A stretch of 64,000 nucleotides of DNA, taken from positions 1,328 through 65,327 of the forward strand of contig CAZAFV010000007.1 in the NCBI GenBank assembly GCA_964484385.1. Reading direction: 5' to 3'. Below the pieces are notes generated by a model, which saw nothing but the letters and a program-made list of their open reading frames with translations, did not search any database and was not told the DNA's origin. The position numbers and the translations under genes are program-made. Below are positions 30,014-41,029 of the stretch, piece after piece; position 1 is the first letter of the stretch; each line of letters opens with the position of its first letter. This DNA is from an uncultured Acidimicrobiales bacterium (lineage in GTDB: Bacteria; Actinomycetota; Acidimicrobiia; Acidimicrobiales; Poriferisodalaceae).

Positions 30014-30295
30014 GTGACATCGACTGATCCGGCGCCTGCGCAGGCAGACGCCGGCACCGAGCCGCAGCCCGTCCTGACTGATGTCTGGCAGGGAGACGAC
30101 GGCGCCGGCTTCGACGCTGAGCGCAGCAACGTCAAGATCTGCCGCAACGCGCGCCATTTCACCTTCGACGGCTTTGCTGAAGGCGACGAGGACATCGCCA
30201 CGTCGTGGCGGAGACTGCTCGAGCGCGAAGGCAAGGCATCCCCCGACGGCACCTCGGTGCGCGACCTGGTCCTCGGTCCCACTTCAGGCGACTGA
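30014..30295 (+). CDS. hypothetical small protein (93 aa)
   Basis: GTG start. GC3-rich codons run through ...CRNARHFTFDGFAEGDEDIATSWRRLLEREGK.... It ends 26 nt before coxD. I recognise no family. Confidence 0.3.
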   Translation: MTSTDPAPAQADAGTEPQPVLTDVWQGDDGAGFDAERSNVKICRNARHFTFDGFAEGDEDIATSWRRLLEREGKASPDGTSVRDLVLGPTSGD

Positions 30296-30321
30296 GGCCG
30301 GCGGCGTTCCGGGCTCCAACG

Positions 30322-31215
30322 GTGAGCGACCAGCCCCGCAACGAGACACCGGCGAGCGTTGCCGACCTCCAGGCACAGCTTCGCTCAGCCGGCTATCTCG
30401 CGAGCCGAGGCCTGGCCACCGCAACGCTCATCGGGATGCGGTTGGGCCGGCCAATCCTGCTCGAAGGCGAGGTCGGAGTAGGCAAGACCGAGATGGCCAA
30501 GTGCCTCGCGCATATCGGCGGGCGGGAGCTGATCCGCCTGCAGTGCTACGAGGGCATCGACACCTACCAAGCGCTCTACGAGTGGGACTACGCGCGGCAG
30601 ATGCTGCACGTCAGGGCGCTGTCGGAGAGCGAGCTGACTGACGCCGAGGCTGTCAGCGGGCTGTACGGCCCTGAATTCCTCATCGAGCGGCCGCTGCTGT
30701 CGGCGATCAAGGCCGGCAGCAGTGCGGTGCTGCTCATCGACGAGGTCGATCGTGCCGACGACGAATTCGAGGCCTTCCTGCTGGAGCTGCTGTCGGACTT
30801 CCAGATCACGATTCCCGAGATCGGCACCGTCACCGCGGCCAGCCGGCCGATGGTGGTGGTGACCTCGAATCGCACCCGGGAACTGCACGACGCCCTCAAG
30901 CGCCGATGCCTCTACCACTGGATCGGTTACCCCAGCTTCGAGGAGGAGATCGAGATCGTGCGCTTGCGTGCGCCCGATGCTGTCGCAACCCTCGCCCACA
31001 AGGTGGTTGCTGCCGTTCAGCGCCTGCGCGACATGGATCTCGCCAAGCCGCCGGGTATCGCCGAGACGCTGGACTGGGTGGATGCGCTCGGCGTGCTGGG
31101 CACCGACGATCTCGATGCGGCGGCCGCAGCCGACACGATCGGCGCGGTCATCAAGGACCGTGACGACCTCGAATTGATCGAAACCGAACTCGACAGGGTT
31201 GTTGCCGATGCCTGA
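30322..31215 (+). CDS. coxD: MoxR-type AAA+ ATPase, CoxD-like CO-dehydrogenase maturation factor
   Basis: GTG at 30322. Walker A is LEGEVGVGKTEMAK and Walker B is VLLIDEVDRA, with a MoxR-type layout. It lies next to a VWA protein and the coxMSL genes. Confidence 0.8.
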   Translation: MSDQPRNETPASVADLQAQLRSAGYLASRGLATATLIGMRLGRPILLEGEVGVGKTEMAKCLAHIGGRELIRLQCYEGIDTYQALYEWDYARQMLHVRALSESELTDAEAVSGLYGPEFLIERPLLSAIKAGSSAVLLIDEVDRADDEFEAFLLELLSDFQITIPEIGTVTAASRPMVVVTSNRTRELHDALKRRCLYHWIGYPSFEEEIEIVRLRAPDAVATLAHKVVAAVQRLRDMDLAKPPGIAETLDWVDALGVLGTDDLDAAAAADTIGAVIKDRDDLELIETELDRVVADA

Positions 31216-31229
31216 CCGCGGCGCCGCTG

Positions 31230-32396
31230 ATGCCTGACGTGGGTCGGGCACCCGAAGCTGTGGCCAACACGCCGCCAATGGAATTCGTAGCGAGGCTCGT
31301 CGGCTTTGGCCATGCGTTGCGGGACGAGGGCCTGCCGGTGGGCTCCGACGACGTGGTCACGTTCTGCTCTGCGGTTTCCGAACTCACGCCGAGCGATCTC
31401 GAAGACGTCTACTGGAGCGGCCGCACGACGCTGGTCCATCGCCGGGACCACCTGCCGCTCTACGACGAGGTGTTCCGCCGGTACTTCTTGGGACACCGGG
31501 CCCCGGCCAAACCCCAGCCTTCCGAATCCGAACCGATCGCGCAGGGCCAGAGCGGCACCCTGAACGTGCCAGACAGCGAGCCTGGCACTCAAACGGGTGA
31601 CGACCGGCCGATGGTGCTCGGGCGTCAGGCCTCTGGGGTCGAGTTCCAGCGCGACAAGCGCTTCGCGGAGTGCACGCCCACCGAGCTGGCTGCGCTGCGG
31701 CGCATCATGGCGCAGGTTCGACTCGAACCGCCCCGCCGTCGCACCCGGCGGCGTCGCACCGACCCGTCGGGGGCACGCCTCGACATCCGCCGCATAGCCC
31801 GCGACGCCATGCGTCTCAGCCACGCCGCCCCGGTCCTGCATCGCGTGACGCGAGCCGAGCGGGCTCGCCCGCTCGTGCTGATCCTCGACATATCGGGGTC
31901 GATGGCCGACTACTCCCGGAACCTGCTGCAGTTCGCATACTCGATGCGCAGGGCGGCCCAGAAGGTGGAGGTGTTCTGCTTCGGCACCCGGTTGACGCGC
32001 ATCACCCCAGCGCTCGACCGACGCAACCCCGACGACGCGATGAAGCTGGCGGCTGCCCGCGTCCTGGACTGGGACGGAGGCACCCGGATCGGGGCATCGC
32101 TGGACAGCTTCATCCGCAGGTGGGGCCGCAAAGGACTCAGCCGTGGCGCCACCGTCGTCATCTGCTCCGACGGGCTGGATCGGGGCGAGCCTGCCGCCCT
32201 GGCGAGCGCGATGGAACGCCTGAGCCGGCTCTGCCACCGGATCATCTGGATGAACCCGCTGGTCGGCGACCACCCGGACACTCCGCCCAGCACACTGGGC
32301 ATGATGGCCGCCGGCCCGTTCATCGACACGCTTGAATCGGGCCACGACTTGGCGAGCCTGGAACAGTTCGCCGCCAAGCTGGCCCACGTCGGGTGA
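31230..32396 (+). CDS. coxE: VWA domain protein, CoxE-like
   Basis: 388 aa. The C-terminal VWA domain has the MIDAS-type LILDISGSM motif. It immediately follows the MoxR ATPase. Confidence 0.8.
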   Translation: MPDVGRAPEAVANTPPMEFVARLVGFGHALRDEGLPVGSDDVVTFCSAVSELTPSDLEDVYWSGRTTLVHRRDHLPLYDEVFRRYFLGHRAPAKPQPSESEPIAQGQSGTLNVPDSEPGTQTGDDRPMVLGRQASGVEFQRDKRFAECTPTELAALRRIMAQVRLEPPRRRTRRRRTDPSGARLDIRRIARDAMRLSHAAPVLHRVTRAERARPLVLILDISGSMADYSRNLLQFAYSMRRAAQKVEVFCFGTRLTRITPALDRRNPDDAMKLAAARVLDWDGGTRIGASLDSFIRRWGRKGLSRGATVVICSDGLDRGEPAALASAMERLSRLCHRIIWMNPLVGDHPDTPPSTLGMMAAGPFIDTLESGHDLASLEQFAAKLAHVG

Positions 32397-32423
32397 TCCT
32401 GGGGTCCTGATGAGCCGCGAACG

Positions 32424-32708
32424 ATGAGCCGGTGGAGCGTTTCCATCCAAGCCGAAGGCGACCGCCCCATCGAATTGGATGAGGTGGTCGCGCTGGCCGA
32501 TGCTGTCGCACCGCTCGAAGGCATCGCATCCGGCGTCGGTGCGATGGCATACGGCGCCCAGATCGTTGTGGAGGCTGAGAGTTCCGACCAAGCCGTCGAA
32601 GCGGCCATGGCGGCGTTCGCTGCTGCTGTCGAGACCGCAGACCTCCCCGCCTGGCCGATGACCCGAGCCGAGGTGATCGGCGAGGACGAGTTGGACTTCG
32701 ACGAATGA
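32424..32708 (+). CDS. hypothetical acidic protein (94 aa)
   Basis: ATG start and GC3-biased codons. It lies 27 nt after coxE. I recognise no motif. Confidence 0.45.
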   Translation: MSRWSVSIQAEGDRPIELDEVVALADAVAPLEGIASGVGAMAYGAQIVVEAESSDQAVEAAMAAFAAAVETADLPAWPMTRAEVIGEDELDFDE

Positions 32709-32732
32709 CGCGGCCCCAGTGATTCGGCCCCA

Positions 32733-33200
32733 ATGATTCGACTTGGCTCGCTTGCCGGCTACCCCTTCGAGGGACCACGGGTGCTCGGCGGTTGGACGCC
32801 GCCGAGGGGTGCAGCCGTGTTCGCGGTCCTGTACCGGGCCGACCCCGACGGCAAGCCGTACGACTACGCCGTGCTCGACGTCGACCACGCGGACAACCTG
32901 GCAGCGGCCGGACTGCCGTTCGGCCACCCCCGCGCCAAGTGCTGGGAACGGCGCGCTGGCAACAAGTGGAACCTCCACATCTGCACCTACGAGGTACCGG
33001 GCGGGCTGCGCTCACATCGCGAGCAGATCGTCCAGGAGCTCGTCGCCATCTATCGGCCCGGCTGCGCGCCCGACCAGTTCGACCGGGTGTGGGAGGACGA
33101 ATGGATCGGCAGCTACCGAGCCCCCACTGCGGGCCCGCTCACGACCACGCGAGACCCCAGCGGTTCGACCGGACCAACCTCTGAGTCGGGCTCGAGCTGA
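32733..33200 (+). CDS. hypothetical protein (155 aa)
   Basis: ATG start and coding-like codon bias. There is faint GIY-YIG-like spacing (AVFAVLY-x11-YAVLD...REQIVQELVAIYRP) but the canonical catalytic residues are absent. Confidence 0.45.
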   Translation: MIRLGSLAGYPFEGPRVLGGWTPPRGAAVFAVLYRADPDGKPYDYAVLDVDHADNLAAAGLPFGHPRAKCWERRAGNKWNLHICTYEVPGGLRSHREQIVQELVAIYRPGCAPDQFDRVWEDEWIGSYRAPTAGPLTTTRDPSGSTGPTSESGSS

Positions 33201-33210
33201 CTGCCGGCGG

Positions 33211-33573
33211 CTATTCGGGGTGGTAGCCGACTGCGTCGTGAAGCCGGCTGCGGCGCGTGCCCATCGCGGGCCGGGCCGGCGACGGCTCGCGAGGCTCGGG
33301 TTCAGGCTCGTAGGTGGCACCGGTCACGATGCCTTCGGCCATGCCGTACAGCAGTGGCAGAGCGCCGGCGATGACGCCGGCCGTGTTGTTGATGCGCTCG
33401 ACGCCCGGCTCGACGGCCTCAGCGTCGGACTTGATCTTCCAGACGATCTGCGAGCACTCCTCGAGCAGGCCGGCGATCCGGGTGAGCTGGCTGCCCACCA
33501 CGAACAGGTAGAACGCGAGCCCGGCAATGAACAAGCCGATCAGGATGACGGAGAGAACAACGAGTGTCGTCAT
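33211..33573 (-). CDS. small single-pass membrane protein, paralogue 5 (120 aa, Pro/Glu-rich tail)
   Basis: N-terminal TM helix TLVVLSVILIGLFIAGLAFYLFVV followed by a helical domain. The ATG overlaps the stop of the upstream paralogue (ATGA). Confidence 0.6.
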   Translation of the reverse strand: MTTLVVLSVILIGLFIAGLAFYLFVVGSQLTRIAGLLEECSQIVWKIKSDAEAVEPGVERINNTAGVIAGALPLLYGMAEGIVTGATYEPEPEPREPSPARPAMGTRRSRLHDAVGYHPE

Positions 33574-33860
33574 GAGCGCACCTTGTCGAGTACTCGGCCC
33601 AGGAACAGGTGATGTTCGAGACCTTCGGTCAGCACCGCGTCCACCCCGTCGGCAGTTTCGGCGATCAGGGCGGTGTCAGACGTGTTGGCGGCGGCTCGTT
33701 CGAGCGTGCCTTTGATGGTCTCCACCCGGCGCTCGATCGTGCGCACCAGAAGCACCAGCATGGTGAGCAGCACCACCACGGCCACGATCACCACGAATCC
33801 GCCGATGATGACCCCCCACCAGAGGTTCTCTTGGGTGTCGGTGAGAGCCAGCAGGTTCAT
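33570..33860 (-). CDS. small single-pass membrane protein, paralogue 4 (96 aa)
   Basis: TM helix WWGVIIGGFVVIVAVVVLLTMLVLLV followed by a helical region IERRVETIKGTLERAAANT.... It starts 1 nt after the stop of paralogue 3. Confidence 0.6.
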   Translation of the reverse strand: MNLLALTDTQENLWWGVIIGGFVVIVAVVVLLTMLVLLVRTIERRVETIKGTLERAAANTSDTALIAETADGVDAVLTEGLEHHLFLGRVLDKVRS

Positions 33861-33861
33861 G

Positions 33862-34140
33862 TCAGCCTCCTAACCGGTTCCGGCCACGCTTGAGGCCGTC
33901 GACGATCACCGTTGCCGCCGCGATCGTCGTGTTCAGTTCCCCGAGCGCCGCCGTGTTGGTGACGGCGTCTTCCAGTCCGTCGTTGATCTCGGTGGCCCGA
34001 TTGCCGATCGAACGGGCCAGCATCAGGATGGGCACGACGAGGGCGACCACCGCGATCACGACGACGATGCCGATGACGTAGCCGATGACCCATCCGGTGG
34101 TGGATCCGGCGTCCGAACTCTGGGCGAGTAACTGCAGCAT
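33862..34140 (-). CDS. small single-pass membrane protein, paralogue 3 (92 aa)
   Basis: TM helix WVIGYVIGIVVVIAVVALVVPILML followed by IGNRATEINDGLEDAVTNTAALGELN.... Confidence 0.6.
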   Translation of the reverse strand: MLQLLAQSSDAGSTTGWVIGYVIGIVVVIAVVALVVPILMLARSIGNRATEINDGLEDAVTNTAALGELNTTIAAATVIVDGLKRGRNRLGG

Positions 34141-34153
34141 GGCGGTGCCTCCC

Positions 34154-34384
34154 TCAGATCGATTCGCAGAAGTCGTGGACGGGCATCAGCGTCGAGTTGA
34201 CCGACGGCAACACAGTGGGCACCGTCGAGGTCTGTTCGGCGATGACGCGAACGCCGCCGGCCACTTGGGTGAGCGTGCGGTGCACCGCAACCAGGTGCAG
34301 CACCACGCGGAGCAGCCCGACCGCAGCCGCCAAGATGATCAAGCCGCCGATGATGACAGTGACCCAGGCAACAACAGGCATCAC
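34154..34384 (-). CDS. small single-pass membrane protein, paralogue 2 (76 aa)
   Basis: TM helix VVAWVTVIIGGLIILAAAVGLL followed by VHRTLTQVAGGVRVIAEQTS.... Confidence 0.55.
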   Translation of the reverse strand: MMPVVAWVTVIIGGLIILAAAVGLLRVVLHLVAVHRTLTQVAGGVRVIAEQTSTVPTVLPSVNSTLMPVHDFCESI

Positions 34385-34392
34385 GTCCCCTT

Positions 34393-34644
34393 TCAGCCCA
34401 GGAGCTTTCCGACCGAACCGGCGTAGCGGACCGCACCGTCCGCCACTTCTTCGATCGTCTCGTCAGTAGTTGCGAGCAAGTCCTGCGTCGTGTCGAGCTC
34501 GCCGATGATCCCCACGCCGCCGGCCAGGATGTCGTCGCTGGCTTTGCGAATGCGCTCGATTGCGGCGAGCACCCGGTTCAGCAGCGCGAGCGCGACCGGC
34601 ACGACCACCACGAGCAGTATCAGGTTTCCAATCCACCAGAGCAC
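34393..34644 (-). CDS. small single-pass membrane protein, paralogue 1 (83 aa)
   Basis: GTG at 34644 is preceded by GAGGAGG, which overlaps the coxG stop. TM helix WWIGNLILLVVVVPVALALL followed by IERIRKASDDILAGGVGIIGELD.... Confidence 0.6.
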   Translation of the reverse strand: MLWWIGNLILLVVVVPVALALLNRVLAAIERIRKASDDILAGGVGIIGELDTTQDLLATTDETIEEVADGAVRYAGSVGKLLG

Positions 34645-34654
34645 GGGTTCCTCC

Positions 34655-35239
34655 TCAGACAGCCTCGGGTCGGTACGGCAGGACAAGTCGACGCACGACG
34701 CGGGCGAGCCCCATCTGTGCGGCGCGCATGCCGATGGTGACGCCACCGGCGGCTCGGACTTGGCCGACGTCGTCGGGGTCGCGGCCCACAGCAACCGCTG
34801 CCAGCCGGTTCTGGACGTTGGCAGCGAAGTCGCTCAGCAGCACCGCGGTGATGTCGCTCACCAGGCCACGCCCGTACTGTGCTGCGGGCCCGGAGAGCTG
34901 TAGGTCCATGGCCACCTCCACGCTCGTGCCGCCCGCAGCGTCAGCGAGGCTGGCGTTGAGTTCGAGCGTGGCTTGGCCCCGGCCCTTGCGATCGGCGCCG
35001 CTGGCAGCGACAGAGATCGTCCGGTTCTCCTCGTCCCGCTGCGTGATCTCGGCACCGCCGTCGAAGTCGAGCTTGATGGGGCCGAGGCCGATGGACACGG
35101 TGCCGCCGTAGCGGTCGTCGCCTAGCTCGGTGGTCAGCTCGGTGCCCGGCAGACACGCCGCCACCTGCGGCACGTCGCCGAAGAAGCTCCACACAGCCTC
35201 CAGCGGCTGCGCGACCTGGAACTGGTTGGTGATCTGCAT
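34655..35239 (-). CDS. coxG: SRPBCC-fold CO dehydrogenase subunit G (CoxG) family protein
   Basis: MQITNQFQVAQPLEAVWSFFGDVPQVAACLPG... is the typical CoxG/SRPBCC N-terminus. The gene sits in the cox operon. Confidence 0.8.
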   Translation of the reverse strand: MQITNQFQVAQPLEAVWSFFGDVPQVAACLPGTELTTELGDDRYGGTVSIGLGPIKLDFDGGAEITQRDEENRTISVAASGADRKGRGQATLELNASLADAAGGTSVEVAMDLQLSGPAAQYGRGLVSDITAVLLSDFAANVQNRLAAVAVGRDPDDVGQVRAAGGVTIGMRAAQMGLARVVRRLVLPYRPEAV

Positions 35240-36201
35240 CAGGCGACTCCCCGCTCACGTGCGAAGGTTGTGCGGCACCCCGCGCAGCAGAAGTAGAAGA
35301 CCTCGTCGCCGATCTCCAGCGACGGCGTCGCCGGATCGATCTGGACGGTCATGCCGCAGACAGGGTCGACGGCCGTCGGCATCGCCGACGCTTGGGCGCT
35401 GGCTGTCGCTGCGAACACACCCTGGGCACGGAGCTGCACCAGCTCGGCCAGGATCGACACTGCAACCTCTTTGTGCGAGGTGCTGCCGAGATCCAGGCCG
35501 GCAGGGGCTCGCAATGCGCCGAGCTGGGTCTCTTCCACGCCTTGATCAGCAAGCAGAGCCCGGACGCTGCGGCCTCGTCGAGCCGATGAGACCAGACCCA
35601 CGTACGCCGGATCGGCCTTGAACGCAGCGTTCAGCACGTCCTCATCGCCGTGCCCTTGGGTGGCAACCACCACCATCGACTGCGGCGTGAGCAGCCCCTC
35701 GCTGAACTCGGCACGATCCACCAGCTCGACACGCCAGTCGAGCTGGGCGGCCAGCACCGACAGGGTGGTCGCCATGGGCGAGCTTCCGACGATCACGAGG
35801 TGGGGTGCGGCCACGACGGGCTCCAAGTAGATCTGCAGGGCGCCTTCGCTCTGGCACGACATGGGCACCGCAGTGGTGCCCTGGGGCAGGTCGCCGAATC
35901 GGTCGCTCGCGCCGAGCGCCAGCAAGCGCGGCGTGCCCGCCTCGAGCGTCGCGATGGCCTCCCGGATGAATACCGGCTCCGCACAGGCGCCGCCGATCCA
36001 CCCGTACATCTCTCCCGCGGCCGTGTAGATGGCGCGAGAACCGCGCTGCCCCGATGTCGGACCTTCGCGCCAGACAACCGTGGCCAGCACGAATGCCTCG
36101 CCGCTGCGTGCCAGTTCGGTGGCGCGCTCGAGCACACCCCAGCCCTCGACGGCCCCTTGTCCGACCGGTTCGGGCCCGACGGCGCCGGAGCTGCTCATCA
36201 T
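35239..36201 (-). CDS. XdhC/CoxF-family molybdoenzyme maturation protein fused to a C-terminal YHS/TRASH metal-binding domain
   Basis: XdhC_CoxI-like N-terminus (FVLATVVWREGPTSGQRGS) and a Rossmann-like middle (HLVIVGSSPMA). The C-terminal DPVCGMTV...VFYFCCAGCRTTF lies at about 35242-35373. The start overlaps the coxL stop by 4 nt. Confidence 0.8.
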   Translation of the reverse strand: MMSSSGAVGPEPVGQGAVEGWGVLERATELARSGEAFVLATVVWREGPTSGQRGSRAIYTAAGEMYGWIGGACAEPVFIREAIATLEAGTPRLLALGASDRFGDLPQGTTAVPMSCQSEGALQIYLEPVVAAPHLVIVGSSPMATTLSVLAAQLDWRVELVDRAEFSEGLLTPQSMVVVATQGHGDEDVLNAAFKADPAYVGLVSSARRGRSVRALLADQGVEETQLGALRAPAGLDLGSTSHKEVAVSILAELVQLRAQGVFAATASAQASAMPTAVDPVCGMTVQIDPATPSLEIGDEVFYFCCAGCRTTFARERGVA

Positions 36202-38576
36202 TCGGTCTTCACCGGCGGGGCACCGGAGACGTCGTGGCCCTGGGTGAGGGCTTCATAGACCCGATCGGGCAGCAGCGGCATGTCGATATTGCGAACGCCG
36301 GTGTCACCGATGGCGTCGATCACGGCGTTGACGAACGCTGCCGGTCCGCCCACGGTGGCGCACTCGCCGATGCCCTTCGCACCGATGGGATGATGCGGGC
36401 AGGGTGTCACCACTTCGTGGAGCTCGAAGCCCGGTGTCTCCCACGCGGTCGGCAGCAGGTAGTCCATGTAGTTGGAGCCGATGCAGTTGCCGTCCTCGTC
36501 GAAGGTGATGAACTGCATGTTGGCCATGGCGTAGGCCTCAGTGAGCCCGCCCATGATCTGGCCCTCGACGATCATCGGGTTGATACGCACGCCGCAGTCG
36601 TCCACCGCCACCACCCGCAGCACGTCCCACACGCCGGTCTCGGGATCGACCTCGACGGTGGCGATGTAGCAGGCGAACGGCCACGTCAGGTTCGGTGGGT
36701 CGTAGTAGGCGTTGTTCTCGAGACCTGGCTCCATGCCGTCGGGCATGTTGCTGTAGGCGGCAATCGCGCATTCCTGGATGGTCACGCCCCGGTCAGGTGC
36801 GCCACGCACCGAGAACCGGCCCAGCTCCCATTCGATGTCCTCCTCGGACACCTCGAGCAGGTGAGCGGCGATCTTGCGGGCCTTTGCGCGGATCTTGCGC
36901 GACACCATGGCCACGGCCGCTCCGGCCACCGGTGTGCTGCGTGACGCGTAGGTGCCCATGCCGAATGGGGCCGTGTCGGTGTCGCCCTCTTCGACCAGCA
37001 CATCCTCGGCCGGTATGCCCAGCTCGTGGGCGACGATCTGCGCCCAAGTGGTCTCGTGGCCTTGGCCCTGTGTCTTGGCGCCGGTGCGCAGCAGCGCCTT
37101 GCCGGTCATGTGGACCTTCAGCTCGGCGGAGTCGAACATCTTGATGCCCAAGATGTCGTACTCCCGGCTGTTGCCCGCCCCGAGGGGCTCGGTCATGGTC
37201 GAGATGCCGATGCCCAGCAGCCGGCCGCGCTGGCGCGCCTCTTCCTTCTGGCGCAGGAAGTCCTCGTAGCCGATCGCTTCGAGCCCGAGGTCGAGGCACT
37301 TGCCGTACTGGCCGGAGTCGGTCAGGAACCCCCAGGGCGTGCGATGGGGGAAGTCGTCGTCGCGCACCAGGTTGATGCGGCGAAACTCGGCCTGGTCCAT
37401 GCCGAGATCAGTGGCGGCCGTCTGCACCATGCGCTCCTGGAAGTACATGGCCTCGGTGACCCGGAATGAGCAGCGATACGCGACGCCGCCGGGTGCCTTG
37501 TTCGTGTAGACGCCCTGAGCGGTGAGATGCGCTGCCGGAATGTCGTAGCAGCTGAAGGCCGAGTGCATCAGGCCGATCTTGAACTTGCTCGGCTGGGCAT
37601 CGGAGAAGAAGGCGCCGTGGTCGGAGTCGGTGTGCATGCGCACGCCGAGAATCCGGCCGTCGCGTCGCAGCGCCATCTCGCCCTTGAGGTAGATGTCGCG
37701 GCCGAACCCTGTCGAGATGAGGTTGCCGCTCTTGTCCTCGATCCACTTGACGGGGCACTCGAGCAGGATCGACGCCAGGATCGACACGACATAGCCCGGG
37801 TACACCGGCACCTTGTTCCCGAAGCCGCCGCCAAGGTCGGGGGACACGATGCGGATCATGTGCTCGGGCAGCTCGGCTACCAGCGCCACCGCGGCGCGGA
37901 TGATGTGCGGCGCCTGGGTGGTCATGTACACAGTGAGCTTCGAGGTCGCCCGGTTGAAATCGGCGATCGAGCCGCACGCCTCGATGGGCGACGGGTGCGA
38001 GCGCGGGTAGTGCATGTCGATGGTCGAGACCACATCGGCCTCGGCGAAGGCCCGATCGGTGCCCTCACGGTCGCCGACCTCCCAGTCGAACACGACGTTG
38101 GAGTCCTGGCCGGTCTTGTCGTCGCGGATCAGCGGGGCGTCGGGCGCCTTTGCCTGGGTCGGGTTGACGATGGGCGGCAGCGGTTCGTAGTCGACCACGA
38201 TCGCCTCGCAGCCGTCCTTTGCGATGTAGGGGTCGTCGGCGACGACGCAGGCCACTTCCTGGCCCTGGAATCGGACCTTGTCGGTGGCGAGGACGGCTTG
38301 GGTGTCGTATGACAGCGTCGGCATCCAGGCCAGGTTCCGGGCGGCCAGCATGTCGCCGGTGAGCACCATGCGAACGCCGGGAATGGCCCAGGCAGCGCTG
38401 ACGTCAATGGAGCGAATGCGGGCGTGAGCGAGCGGGCTGCGCAGGATCTCCATGTGCAGCATCCCGGGCAGGGCGATGTCGTCGATGTAGTTGCCCTTGC
38501 CGCGGATGAAGCGGTTGTCCTCCACCCGCCGCCGGCTGGCGCCGAGGCCGCCGATCTTGATCTCGTCGAGCGCCAT
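36198..38576 (-). CDS. coxL: form I aerobic CO dehydrogenase large (Mo-Cu) subunit
   Basis: Xanthine-dehydrogenase-family molybdopterin subunit. The active-site loop VAYRCSFR is encoded at 37461-37481 and I verified the codons. An ATG at 38576 lies 1 nt after the coxS stop; the listed ORF extends to a TTG at 38630. Confidence 0.9.
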   Translation of the reverse strand: MALDEIKIGGLGASRRRVEDNRFIRGKGNYIDDIALPGMLHMEILRSPLAHARIRSIDVSAAWAIPGVRMVLTGDMLAARNLAWMPTLSYDTQAVLATDKVRFQGQEVACVVADDPYIAKDGCEAIVVDYEPLPPIVNPTQAKAPDAPLIRDDKTGQDSNVVFDWEVGDREGTDRAFAEADVVSTIDMHYPRSHPSPIEACGSIADFNRATSKLTVYMTTQAPHIIRAAVALVAELPEHMIRIVSPDLGGGFGNKVPVYPGYVVSILASILLECPVKWIEDKSGNLISTGFGRDIYLKGEMALRRDGRILGVRMHTDSDHGAFFSDAQPSKFKIGLMHSAFSCYDIPAAHLTAQGVYTNKAPGGVAYRCSFRVTEAMYFQERMVQTAATDLGMDQAEFRRINLVRDDDFPHRTPWGFLTDSGQYGKCLDLGLEAIGYEDFLRQKEEARQRGRLLGIGISTMTEPLGAGNSREYDILGIKMFDSAELKVHMTGKALLRTGAKTQGQGHETTWAQIVAHELGIPAEDVLVEEGDTDTAPFGMGTYASRSTPVAGAAVAMVSRKIRAKARKIAAHLLEVSEEDIEWELGRFSVRGAPDRGVTIQECAIAAYSNMPDGMEPGLENNAYYDPPNLTWPFACYIATVEVDPETGVWDVLRVVAVDDCGVRINPMIVEGQIMGGLTEAYAMANMQFITFDEDGNCIGSNYMDYLLPTAWETPGFELHEVVTPCPHHPIGAKGIGECATVGGPAAFVNAVIDAIGDTGVRNIDMPLLPDRVYEALTQGHDVSGAPPVKTE

Positions 38577-38577
38577 C

Positions 38578-39159
38578 TCAGCCCTCCCCGCCTGCGTCAT
38601 CGCCGGCATCGTCCGCACCGTCGCTCTCAACGTTGGCGCCTAGCTTCTCGGCCGCCCACATCACGGCCTTGACGATGTTCTGGTAGCCGGTGCAGCGGCA
38701 GAGATTCCCCGACAGCGCCCAGCGGATCTCGTCCTCGCTGGGGTTCGGGTTCTCTTCCAGCAACGCCTTCGCGGCGAGCATCATGCCCGGGGTGCAGAAA
38801 CCGCACTGCAGGCCGTGCTCGTCCTTGAAGCCCTCCTGGATCGGATGCAGCTCGCTCGCGGTCGCCAGGCCTTCGACGGTGAGCACCTCGTGGCCGTCGG
38901 CTTGGACGGCGAACATCGTGCAGCTCTTGACGGGCACGCCGTCGTACAGCACGGTGCATGCGCCGCAGTTGGTCGTGTCGCAACCGGTGTGAGTTCCCGT
39001 CAGCCGGAAGCCGTTGCGCAGCAGGTGCGCCAGCAACAGCCGCGGCTCCACGTCGGCCGCACGCCGCTCGCCGTTCACGGTCAGCTCCACACGGCGAACC
39101 GGTACTGCGTCGCCGGCGCCGCCGTCGCTCGGACGGACCTCTTCGAACAATGTGCTCAT
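38578..39159 (-). CDS. coxS: CO dehydrogenase small subunit, [2Fe-2S]
   Basis: ATG at 39159 (MSTLFEE...). The two 2Fe-2S motifs are [11 protein letters not shown] and CGFCTPG...CRCTGY. Confidence 0.9.
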
Positions 39160-39160
39160 G

Positions 39161-40036
39161 TCAGGCCGCCTCGTGTTCTGATCGCTGGATCTGAGCGCCG
39201 ATGCGCCGCACGAAGGTGGCGACGACGTGGCGCTTGTAATCGGCGCTTCCCCGGTGGTCAGAGCGTGGCTGAGCCGCCTCGGCCGCGAGCTGGGCTGCCG
39301 CGTCGACGGCATCCGAATCGAGCGCCGTGCCGACCAGCGCCGCTGCGGCGTCGGAGGCGTTGATGGTGGCAGGCCCGACAGCGGTGAGCCCGATGCCCGC
39401 ACGCGCAACGCTGCCGCCCGACATCTCGACCGAGACCGCGACGCCGACGGTGGCGAAGTCACCGACCCGACGTTCGAGCTTGAGATAGCCACCCGCCCGG
39501 GCGCCGCGTGCTGCGGGAATCACTGCCTCGACGGCGATCTCGTCGGGAGCGAGCACCGTTTGGAACGGGCCGTCGATGAGATCGGCCACCTGAATGCTCC
39601 GGCGCCCATTCGGGCCTTGAGCCACGACGGCGCCTTCCAGCGACACCATCACCGAGGCCCAGTCGCCTTGCGGGTCGGCGTGACACACCGAGCCCACGAG
39701 CGTTCCCCGTGTGCGCACCAAGGGGTCGGCCACGTCAGGGGCTGCCGCAGCGATGGTCGGTTGGGCATCGGCGAGCGCAGCGGATTTCTCGAGATCAGCG
39801 TGCCGGCACAACGCCCCGATGCGATAGGTGCCGTCGGGATCTGCCCGGTGGTAGTCGAGGCCGCCGATGCCGTTGATGTCCACGATCATCGCGGGCGCCG
39901 CGAATCGCAGCTTCATCATCGGGATGAGGCTCTGGCCGCCCGCCAGGATCTTCGCCTCGCCGTCTGCTGCGGCGAGCATCGCAACTGCCTCGGCGACGGT
40001 CGAGGGCGCTTCGTAGCGGAAGCGAGATGGATACAT
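39161..40036 (-). CDS. coxM: CO dehydrogenase medium subunit, FAD-binding
   Basis: 291 aa with an FAD_binding_5-type N-terminus (...[16 protein letters not shown]...). The stop lies 1 nt before the coxS start. Confidence 0.9.
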
Positions 40037-40039
40037 GCG

Positions 40040-40294
40040 TCAGCCCCCTGTCGACGGCCCGCCGGGACCTTGCGGATCCGGCACAGCTCGCGGCAACGAC
40101 TCGGCGTCGGGATCGGGCCGTCGCTCCTGGTGTGGCGGCCAAGGCCCCTGAACTGGCTGACCAGCGACTTTGAGATAGTCGATGATTTGCGGCCAGGCCC
40201 AAATCGTCGGGCTGGCGCCTTCCTTGGGCGCACCCTCGATGACCTCGTACAGCCTCGGGTTGCCTGCGCTATGGCCTGATGACTCGATCGGCAT
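40040..40294 (-). CDS. hypothetical small protein (84 aa) coupled upstream of coxM
   Basis: ATG at 40294 follows a GGGGAAGGGG purine tract. The stop lies 3 nt before the coxM ATG. I recognise no family, and the Pro-rich C-terminus lowers confidence. Confidence 0.3.
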   Translation of the reverse strand: MPIESSGHSAGNPRLYEVIEGAPKEGASPTIWAWPQIIDYLKVAGQPVQGPWPPHQERRPDPDAESLPRAVPDPQGPGGPSTGG

Positions 40295-40408
40295 GGATTC
40301 CCCTTCCCCCGGAGATCCGGCCGTGTCTCTGCGGCACAGCGAACTTACCACTGCCCGTCGCGGCGCTCCGAACGAAGTCACTGGTCGCACCGGTTTGGTG
40401 CGCCCGCT

Positions 40409-40482
40409 GTGGCGGCGGCAGGGGATTCAGCGACCAGCGATCCAGCAGGTCGCAACGTCGCTGAATCCCCTGCCGCCGCCAC
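40409..40482. repeat. 26-bp perfect inverted repeat with 22-nt spacer
   Basis: GTGGCGGCGGCAGGGGATTCAGCGAC (40409-40434) and its exact reverse complement GTCGCTGAATCCCCTGCCGCCGCCAC (40457-40482). It lies in the divergent intergenic region and ends 4 nt before ATG 40487. Confidence 0.9.
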
Positions 40483-40486
40483 CGCT

Positions 40487-41029
40487 ATGGCATCCGTGCG
40501 TTTGAGGGCGATACTCGCGGGCATGGCGCTTGGCTTCGGAGATTCCCTGGTGGCGGCCAGCTTCAACTCCGGCTGGTACCAGGCTGTGCTGGTCGTTCAC
40601 TTGGCGAGTGCGGTGGTGGGATTCGGCGGCAGCGCCTTGGGCACCGTCATGCTGAGACGGGCATGGACCGACGGCGCTGATGCCACTGCTGCTGTGCGGC
40701 GGGCGTTTGAGTTTGCGTCGAACCGGCTGACGGATATGGCTGCCTACCTCGCCGGCGTCGCCGGCGTGGTCGCGGTGCTCATCGATGACCGTTGGACGTT
40801 CCGGCAAGGCTGGGTGACGACTGCGTTCATTCTGTACTTCGTCTGGTTAGGCATCGCCCACGGCGCACTGCGGCCGGCCAGCGCCAAGCTTGCCGAAGCC
40901 ATGGACGCGGGACCTGAACGGTCCGACGATGCGGAACGGCTGCGGAGGCGGACCGAGCTGTGGTCGATGGCAAACAACCTGGTGATCGTGGCGGCCATTG
41001 CCGTAATGGTGACCAAGCCAGGCTTGTAA
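40487..41029 (+). CDS. integral membrane protein (about 4 TM segments), function unknown
   Basis: MASVRLRAILAGMALGF... followed by further hydrophobic segments. ATG 40487 is preferred over GTG 40409, which would translate the palindrome. Confidence 0.6.
   Translation: MASVRLRAILAGMALGFGDSLVAASFNSGWYQAVLVVHLASAVVGFGGSALGTVMLRRAWTDGADATAAVRRAFEFASNRLTDMAAYLAGVAGVVAVLIDDRWTFRQGWVTTAFILYFVWLGIAHGALRPASAKLAEAMDAGPERSDDAERLRRRTELWSMANNLVIVAAIAVMVTKPGL

Follow-up and report, generated by a model that had tools for sequence, protein, structure and literature searches.

The transfer of electrons from soluble high-affinity carbon monoxide dehydrogenases (CODH) and hydrogenases to the membrane has been solved only in part, with CoxG for the mycobacterial CODH and HucM for the hydrogenase Huc. 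HucM, which Grinter and colleagues are said to have described in Nature in 2023, reportedly is the stalk of this group 2a hydrogenase, a single protein that oligomerises via its C-terminal region. In the form I cox cluster of Oligotropha carboxidovorans, CoxB, CoxC, CoxH and CoxK, the subject of work by Santiago and colleagues in 1999, are reportedly larger, multi-pass membrane proteins. CoxG of M. smegmatis is a menaquinone carrier of the SRPBCC family that extracts menaquinone and has a linker and a C-terminal membrane helix; five small proteins are not shown in the scheme of the M. smegmatis cox gene cluster (Kropp et al. 2025, PMC12202499). Such proteins have been described for group 1l [NiFe]-hydrogenases, in which five small transmembrane proteins, HylTM1-5, are encoded between HylS and HylL (Ortiz et al., bioRxiv 10.1101/2020.08.06.239558). 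An AlphaFold3 model from 2026 predicts that they are intertwined helices forming tube-like scaffolds, by which the cytosolic enzyme is kept on the membrane and close to the quinone pool (PMC13554262). Here, five small genes, S1 to S5, are described that follow coxG in a stretch of 64,000 nucleotides (nt) from an uncultured Acidimicrobiales bacterium of the Poriferisodalaceae (contig CAZAFV010000007.1 of assembly GCA_964484385.1, positions 1,328 to 65,327 of the forward strand), which is called the window in the following. The five proteins characterize one clade of form I Mo-Cu CODH, and profile comparisons show that they have orthologues in [NiFe]-hydrogenase clusters.

Five small genes in the operon of one form I CODH clade

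An earlier note, made from the sequence of the window alone, had reported five small open reading frames (ORFs) directly downstream of coxG. They were confirmed on the minus strand (Table 1), and the spacing was as described: S4 and S5 share an ATGA overlap, the gaps are 1 nt between S3 and S4, 13 nt between S2 and S3 and 8 nt between S1 and S2, and TGAGGAGG links the coxG stop codon to the Shine-Dalgarno (SD) site of S1. For S2, the start at ATG 34381 with 75 amino acids (aa) matched all orthologues better than the 76-aa version. The whole series coxM-coxS-coxL-xdhC-coxG-S1-S2-S3-S4-S5 consists of genes that overlap or are separated by at most 13 nt, with SD sites, and this tight packing from coxM to S5 argues for a ten-gene operon. 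The structural genes have the order coxM-coxS-coxL, and CoxL contains the form I active-site loop as KAPGGVAYRCSFRVTEAMY.

CODH loci were sorted by their large subunit: clade A comprises loci with a CoxL 85–100% identical to that of the window, and clade B those with a CoxL 56–65% identical. When the S4 clade A alignment was scanned against one genome per GTDB species, S4 orthologues were found in at least 546 species representatives. More than 2258 S4 homologues exist, with identities of 76–99% among the 120 matches listed. The 80 best loci from the scan of these at least 546 species were compared, and the gene order was identical in all of them: coxM-coxS-coxL (86–99% identity)-xdhC-coxG-S1 to S5, with p155-p94-coxE-coxD converging on the set (scattered gaps in the S labels of the 80-locus table are an artefact of the overlap filter). 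In the window as in all 80 of these clade A loci, the set comes after coxG and not beside hydrogenase structural genes. More generally, wherever the flank of a clade A locus is available, coxG directly precedes S1, and wherever it is long enough, coxD, coxE, p94 and p155 are found converging on S5.

The identities across clade A are 54–84% for S1 to S5 (71–84% for S1), 46–64% for CoxG and 50–72% for XdhC, and the CoxL of the window is 85–99% identical to its clade A orthologues. The ratios of nonsynonymous to synonymous substitutions (dN/dS) are 0.13–0.28 for S1 to S5 (S1 0.15, S2 0.28, S4 0.13), 0.33 for coxG, 0.18 for coxM and 0.09 for coxL; these are approximate Nei-Gojobori values with dS near saturation and are therefore rough. 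The five genes are real genes under purifying selection. Their membership of a form I cox operon, as the earlier note had it, is supported.

The distribution of the set was analyzed in a sample of 151 Acidimicrobiia genomes. It is present in 6 of 6 genomes with clade A CODH and in 0 of 12 with clade B CODH (Fisher p ~5e-5). The clade B loci have the order coxMSL-xdhC-coxD-coxE, and AYRCSFR is found in 11 of 12 (L060 has no match). Within the 151 sampled genomes, the S set is thus exclusively linked to clade A CoxL, in line with the impression of the earlier note that it is unusual among cox clusters. The genome of the window encodes 14 molybdenum-hydroxylase large subunits and a single S set; no further S copies were found in it. 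A tblastn search of S4 against PLSDB gave no match that would indicate carriage on plasmids.

The main hosts are Acidimicrobiia, namely Candidatus Poriferisodalis, Microthrixaceae, Ilumatobacteraceae and Acidimicrobiaceae. One Candidatus Poriferisodalis locus (L080) is 99–100% identical to that of the window, which very probably stems from the same genus; a literature search on Poriferisodalis yielded no papers. Further hosts are Nocardioides, Micromonosporaceae, Aeromicrobium, Nanopelagicaceae and the cultured Planosporangium flavigriseum TBRC 198 (L119). Two loci from metagenome-assembled genomes (MAGs), labelled Gammaproteobacteria (L103) and Bifidobacterium (L134), are probably mis-binned contigs.

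The clade A CoxL proteins of Acidimicrobiia are 86–92% identical to those of Actinomycetes (Nocardioides, Micromonosporaceae, Planosporangium; loci L061 of genome G503, L102, L104, L114, L119 and others), which is far tighter than for the neighbouring genes. Either an extreme constraint or horizontal movement of the whole cassette could account for this.

The same five-protein set in [NiFe]-hydrogenase clusters

Among 401 genomes sampled across the phylum, one from another class (G503) had an identical clade A locus (L061), and about 20 others gave weaker matches. After Pfam annotation of the fetched loci, these weaker relatives turned out to be modules of S3-S4-S5 and of S1-S2 within [NiFe]-hydrogenase clusters. 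In one locus (L068) the order is hydS (437 aa)-S3-S4-S5-S1-S2-hydL (628 aa), followed by genes for a NifU/Rieske protein and HypF. In a second (L072) the same five genes stand immediately ahead of hydL, and in genome G378 an S-type match lies about 640 nt ahead of hydL. Modules beside hydS and hydL or hyp genes were found in eight further loci (L062, L065, L064, L069, L071, L077, L160, L163).

Profile-profile comparisons (hhalign) between the clade A and the hydrogenase-linked proteins gave 99.6% (E 6e-24) for S1, 98.1% (E 1e-13) for S2, 99.2% (E 2e-19) for S3, 99.0% (E 4e-18) for S4 and 98.2% (E 5e-14) for S5, against a background with reversed profiles of E 2e-3 or worse. The clean diagonal of these matches shows one-to-one orthology, that is, each of the five proteins has its own orthologue in the five-protein sets of actinobacterial [NiFe]-hydrogenase clusters. 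In the hydrogenase-type set S3 comes first, followed by S4, S5, S1 and S2, and the clade A order S1-S2-S3-S4-S5 is a rotation of this order.

The set was also found in a second CODH clade, clade C, with a CoxL that is 57% identical and contains AYRCSFR. There, it is situated upstream of coxM and has the hydrogenase order S3-S4-S5-S1-S2 (L066, L070, L075, L076, L161, L162). A metagenome protein search with 1.84 billion representatives yielded 535 clusters of the S1 family at 50% identity (E <=1e-3), and the contigs sampled from this family were located in CODH (4) or hydrogenase/hyp (3) clusters in 7 of 7 cases.

Clade A genomes were also searched for PF00374. There was no match in 4 of 7 of them, including the genome of the window (G000; the others are G043, G091 and G115). 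In G046 and G503 the match was partial, N-terminal only and in a frame of 485–495 aa. For G102 the row shows 0 matches, which conflicts with the tally of 20 of 28 genomes, and this genome was not counted. As the window's own genome has no match, it holds no [NiFe]-hydrogenase that the S set could serve.

Several additional observations were made on the relatives. In genome G384 a well conserved S3-S4-S5 module (L073 8407-9292, contig G384:C1) adjoins genes for a 1604-aa DUF255-thioredoxin protein, a penicillin amidase and a penicillin-binding protein. This contig is different from those of the CoxL (74% identical) and the hydrogenase of this genome (compare L158, G384:C17), and S1 and S2 were not found near its coxL. 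Large, distant S2/S3/S4-type relatives of 198–234 aa are encoded in two loci (L069 4759-6875, L071 11735-13137). They have an N-terminal transmembrane span and long, repeated helical segments rich in Thr, Asn and Ile, and they adjoin complete five-gene sets; the host family (f80) goes by the name Egibacteraceae in the database entry of a matching protein (P0131), and its genomes carry several hydrogenases. A protein with an ABM domain (antibiotic-biosynthesis-monooxygenase fold) recurs together with the S1-S2 pair in hydrogenase clusters, and one such protein ends a clade C CODH cluster. A Pfam search of the unannotated neighbours of hydrogenase-linked sets recovered only these ABM-domain proteins, for which a quinone-related role is conceivable.

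Predicted structure and kinship of the five proteins

Each of the five proteins has a single, strongly hydrophobic N-terminal segment, with a best 19-residue Kyte-Doolittle mean of 2.65–3.30. No Lys or Arg precedes this segment in any of them, and 1–4 follow it. With these residues only behind the segment, the positive-inside rule predicts an N-out/C-in topology. AlphaFold2 was applied to single chains of S1 and S5 with family alignments. S1 was predicted to be one continuous helix (residues 3-82, mean predicted local distance difference test score, pLDDT, of 76.5). S5 was predicted to have a helix of residues 2-85 (pLDDT 84–98), then a Pro/Glu-rich linker that is disordered (86-109) and, at 110-115, a short helix that falls within the conserved motif RPAxGxRRSRLhDAVGY. 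About 55–60 helical residues, roughly 8 nm, would accordingly project into the cytoplasm in these models. The architecture in the earlier note, one N-terminal transmembrane helix and a helical segment in each protein, therefore agrees with the hydropathy of all five and the models of two, and its Pro/Glu-rich tail of the last protein corresponds to the linker of S5.

The cytoplasmic parts contain conserved polar residues. The C-terminus of S4 is conserved as EGLEHHLFLGRVLDKVRS; across the CODH-linked and hydrogenase-linked sets E79 of S4 is conserved in 35 of 37 and H83 in 33 of 37 sequences, and S3 and S4 have a conserved NT motif. When the sets linked to CODH and to hydrogenase are compared, the membrane spans show no conserved Cys or His, which argues for a scaffold or conduit and not for a cytochrome.

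No significant Pfam or NCBIfam family match was obtained for S1 to S5. Their mutual relationships were analyzed with hhalign. With shallow profiles, only S3 and S4 matched each other (95%, E 2e-8). With deeper profiles, two groups emerged: S1, S3 and S4 matched at 47–95% (E 2e-4 to 4e-8, with S1-S4 as the weakest pair), and S2 and S5 matched at 90–95% (E 2e-6 to 2e-8). S2 also matched the hydrogenase-linked S5 at 90%. All pairs across the two groups were at the background of the reversed-profile control (best E 2e-3). The profiles thus indicate two superfamilies, {S1, S3, S4} and {S2, S5}. The earlier note had taken all five for paralogues; this is retained within each superfamily, and mutual paralogy of all five is rejected, as the pairs between the superfamilies do not rise above the reversed-profile background.

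The kinship to DUF948 (PF06103) that the note had considered was rejected as well. The best score, that of S3, was 15.8 bits (E 0.017), compared with a gathering threshold of 37.2 bits. Of the 98 family members included in this test, 0 of 66 from the S1 family and 4 of 32 from the S3/S4 family matched DUF948 at E <=0.05 (best 0.0037). These weak scores were no better than those to ATP-synthase b and other families with a transmembrane span and a helix.

Enzyme-specific additions to CoxG, S5 and S2

The clade A CoxG proteins end in a conserved basic tail, with the fuller consensus GLAIGLRAARMALxRVFRRFFLPY. The best 19-residue hydropathy is 1.09 in CoxG of the window, and in 73 of 74 clade A CoxG proteins no 19-residue stretch of the last 55 residues reaches 1.6; these proteins have 4–6 Lys or Arg among their last 30 residues. 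By this hydropathy rule, not by TMHMM, CoxG of the window is predicted to have no C-terminal transmembrane anchoring helix. CoxG of clade C comprises 143–146 aa and has no tail at all.

S5 has a tail in clade A only, in which P102, R107, R108, R110 and G116 are invariant in 59 orthologues. The hydrogenase-linked S5 proteins are 87–89 aa long and have no such tail, which is a candidate docking peptide for CODH. In clade C it is the S2-type protein that is enlarged: it is about 200 aa long and has a C-terminal extension of about 120 aa that is absent elsewhere and may be an alternative enzyme adaptor.

Neighbouring genes

The features of the locus and the relatives mentioned above are summarized in Table 1. 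The start of coxL is likely ATG 38576 and not TTG 38630 of the longest ORF; it is one base past the coxS stop and is preceded by GGGGAGGG. The C-terminus of XdhC (35242-35373) has a YHS/TRASH-like metal-binding domain according to weak Pfam matches, and the same was seen on the orthologues of loci L014 to L018.

The accessory genes of the opposite strand end 10 nt from the S5 stop. Neither p94 nor p155 had a Pfam or NCBIfam match. Both are co-conserved with the S set, including one locus of another class, and they were not found in clade B loci. A consensus scan of 32300-40600 revealed no promoter-like sites. Three terminator-like sites were predicted in this region, all on the plus strand, and their number was no higher than in shuffled sequences.

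Table 1. Positions of the genes and protein segments discussed (positions in the window, or in the locus named)
Feature	Position	Strand	Remarks
S1	34393-34644	-	83 aa, GTG start
S2	34154-34384	-	76 aa from longest ORF; 75 aa from ATG 34381
S3	33862-34140	-	92 aa
S4	33570-33860	-	96 aa
S5	33211-33573	-	120 aa
S5 tail, clade A only	33214-33318	-	Pro/Glu-rich disordered linker, then RPAxGxRRSRLhDAVGY
coxG	34655-35239	-	SRPBCC quinone-carrier family, 194 aa; Pfam COXG PF06240, E 2.9e-17
CoxG C-terminal tail	34658-34762	-	conserved basic amphipathic helix GxxIGxRAAxMxLxRVxRRxxLPY, predicted not transmembrane
xdhC/coxF-like maturation factor	35239-36201	-	Pfam XdhC_CoxI and XdhC_C; weak TRASH/YHS matches
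coxL	36198-38576	-	form I Mo-Cu CODH large subunit; AYRCSFR active-site loop
coxS	38578-39159	-	[2Fe-2S] subunit, 193 aa; start placed; orthologues with Fer2_2
coxM	39161-40036	-	flavin adenine dinucleotide (FAD) subunit; ORF; first structural gene of operon; orthologues with FAD_binding_5/CO_deh_flav_C
coxD (MoxR AAA+), coxE (VWA), p94, p155	30205-33200	+	convergent accessory arm; ORFs
p94	32424-32708	+	conserved protein of unknown function, after coxE
p155	32733-33200	+	conserved protein of unknown function, after coxE
ABM-domain proteins	L063 7441-8547; L067 6967-7908; L077 9745-10614; L160 8731-9603; L161 15438-15728
Clade C S2-type proteins	L066 8355-8963; L070 9205-9819; L076 9271-9873; L161 8270-8872

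Proposed role and alternative explanations

The five proteins are proposed to be five distinct accessory subunits of one form I Mo-Cu CODH clade. By analogy with known systems, it seems fairly probable that they constitute a five-helix membrane stalk that would dock the cytoplasmic CODH and CoxG at the membrane and the quinone pool. In this model, each S protein would be an α-helix of about 80 residues, of which the first 20 or so would span the membrane, with the N-terminus outside, and about 55–60 would be cytoplasmic. By analogy with a HylTM1-5-type set, the five helices would assemble into a heteropentameric bundle or stalk that is rooted in the membrane. CoxMSL and the quinone carrier CoxG would be docked by the stalk at the membrane surface, so that the electrons from CO could reach menaquinone. 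The enzyme-specific additions would be the likely points of contact, namely the conserved C-terminal peptide of S5, the C-termini of S1, S3 and S4, which are conserved as well, and the tail of CoxG with its basic amphipathic helix. In clade A this tail might take the place of the transmembrane anchor of mycobacterial CoxG. The assembly into a bundle, the contact with CODH or CoxG and the role in tethering or quinone access are all steps that we infer.

Docking is suggested for four reasons. First, Mo-CODH and the high-affinity hydrogenases are both soluble and must reach the membrane quinone, whereas the maturation of their metal sites is unrelated. Second, translation of S1 is coupled to that of coxG, and CoxG has a tail below the transmembrane threshold in clade A and none in clade C. 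Third, the enzyme-specific additions, the S5 peptide of clade A and the S2-type extension of clade C, are situated at the cytoplasmic ends. Fourth, the membrane spans are devoid of conserved Cys and His. A membrane docking array or scaffold involving CoxG had already been envisaged in the earlier note. This stays the best reading, with the change that the module is not specific for CODH, as it also occurs in hydrogenase clusters. CODH and high-affinity [NiFe]-hydrogenases probably use the same membrane-docking module.

A wider version would regard S1 to S5 and the hydrogenase-linked sets as one portable stalk of trace-gas oxidases. It would be a heteromeric five-helix module that has been swapped between [NiFe]-hydrogenases and Mo-Cu CODH and that serves as an anchor and possibly as a quinone conduit or CoxG dock, with the enzyme-specific tails as adaptors. 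This version is tentative, and we would put its chances slightly below even.

Several points weigh against the proposed docking stalk and its extension to both enzymes. CoxG tails in clade B are likewise weakly hydrophobic amphipathic helices, and the link between a missing CoxG anchor and the presence of the stalk rests on few lineages. In G384 neither CoxL nor the hydrogenase is encoded near the S3-S4-S5 module. In the sample of 401 genomes 12 candidates were scored per genome, and absences are thus soft. The closest solved structure to the linked hydrogenase large subunits is 5AA5, a group 1h enzyme, and these hydrogenases may belong to subgroup 1l or 1h. The likeness to HylTM1-5, which were described from Hymenobacter roseosalivarius, is set by the arrangement and the actinobacterial relatives, and the HylTM1-5 model is itself a prediction.

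Alternatively, the five proteins could be helpers of assembly or maturation that do not belong to the mature complex, e.g., a membrane platform on which large cytoplasmic metalloenzymes such as CODH and [NiFe]-hydrogenase are matured or stabilized before their release. The gene neighbourhood would fit such a role: in the window the set is found amid maturation genes, with xdhC/YHS upstream and coxD and coxE converging, and the hydrogenase loci contain hypC, hypD, hypF, HycI and CbiA/ParA-type ATPases. However, the machineries that mature the Mo-Cu and the Ni-Fe site are unrelated, and the feature that the two enzymes have in common is the delivery of electrons to quinone. In addition, the set of L068 is inserted between two structural hydrogenase genes, that of the window is coupled to coxG and not to coxD or coxE, and the set is conserved as strongly as structural subunits are. 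We therefore regard a maturation role as unlikely.

It is similarly improbable that the bundle links the enzymes to a partner other than quinone, such as a respiratory complex or supercomplex, or that it regulates or gates when the trace-gas oxidases engage the membrane. The conserved polar motifs on the cytoplasmic side, i.e., E79 and H83 of S4, the NT motif of S3 and S4 and RRSRL in the S5 tail, would be superfluous for a simple anchor and could be taken as a sign of such a partner. Nevertheless, no genes for respiratory complexes or regulators are consistently linked to the set, and the gene that is translationally coupled to S1 is coxG, which encodes a known quinone carrier.

The view that the five are generic DUF948-type small membrane proteins of stress or envelope functions that hitch-hike in the operon could appeal to the weak match of S3 (E 0.017) and to a very common architecture of N-terminal span and helix, but it is largely refuted and highly improbable, because the DUF948 scores are far under the cut-off and are equalled by ATP-synthase b and others, the set accompanies a single CoxL clade in each of the 80 loci, all 7 contigs sampled from the family, like most relatives that were fetched from genomes, are in CODH or hydrogenase clusters, and the window's own genome has no other copies.

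Taken together, the docking stalk would have consequences beyond this locus. A large form I CODH clade, with at least 546 species, has five extra conserved subunits that are missing from current cox gene schemes; among its hosts are abundant Acidimicrobiia from marine habitats and sponges, and also Nocardioides and Micromonosporaceae from soil. As the same five-protein module serves [NiFe]-hydrogenases, it would be a modular membrane adaptor common to two trace-gas oxidases. If it is the interface to the membrane and the quinone, two globally important trace-gas sinks would have a common mechanism, and the module would offer a target set for structural and genetic work and a better genomic marker of membrane-coupled CODH. 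The cultured carrier Planosporangium flavigriseum TBRC 198 makes the proposed role testable.

Comparison with known systems

The S proteins differ from several membrane proteins known from similar contexts. The cytochrome b-type anchors of uptake hydrogenases are multi-pass proteins with conserved haem-ligating His in their membrane helices, whereas S1 to S5 are single-pass and have no conserved Cys or His in their membrane spans. The proteins of DUF948 (PF06103) are similar in having an N-terminal transmembrane helix and a helical segment, but the S proteins remain far under the Pfam threshold, with sporadic weak matches in one superfamily. Nothing like CoxB, CoxC, CoxH or CoxK of Oligotropha is encoded in the operon of the window.

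The likeness to HucM is one of concept, in that a stalk of helices associated with the membrane serves as the scaffold of a cytoplasmic high-affinity gas oxidase and provides its access to menaquinone. HucM is one oligomerising protein, in contrast to the five different single-pass proteins S1 to S5. With M. smegmatis CoxG, the window's homologue, which is translationally coupled to S1, would have the same task in common, to connect a soluble Mo-CODH with the menaquinone of the membrane. However, it ends in a predicted basic amphipathic helix, and the membrane spans would be supplied by five extra proteins.

The closest similarity was found with HylTM1-5. In both cases there are five separate genes for single-pass proteins of about 80–100 aa with predicted long helices, and orthologues of S1 to S5 occur in actinobacterial clusters that have the same interposed arrangement (L068, L072). 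The template for HylL was 5AA5 (Ortiz et al., bioRxiv 10.1101/2020.08.06.239558), which is also the structure closest to the large subunits of the linked hydrogenases. The differences are that the partner of S1 to S5 is a Mo-Cu CODH, that the genes follow coxG, that their order is rotated and that S5 has an added C-terminal peptide. The HylTM literature (bioRxiv 10.1101/2020.08.06.239558, PMC13554262) does not mention CODH, and such proteins in cox operons are mentioned neither in PMC12202499 nor in a marine CODH survey from 2026 (PMC13240472), nor were they found by a search with combined terms. Within the literature searched, the link of HylTM-type proteins to CODH is therefore new. In summary, S1 to S5 appear to bring to CODH the five-protein stalk of the HylTM type, which has been known from hydrogenase gene clusters alone, and there only by prediction.

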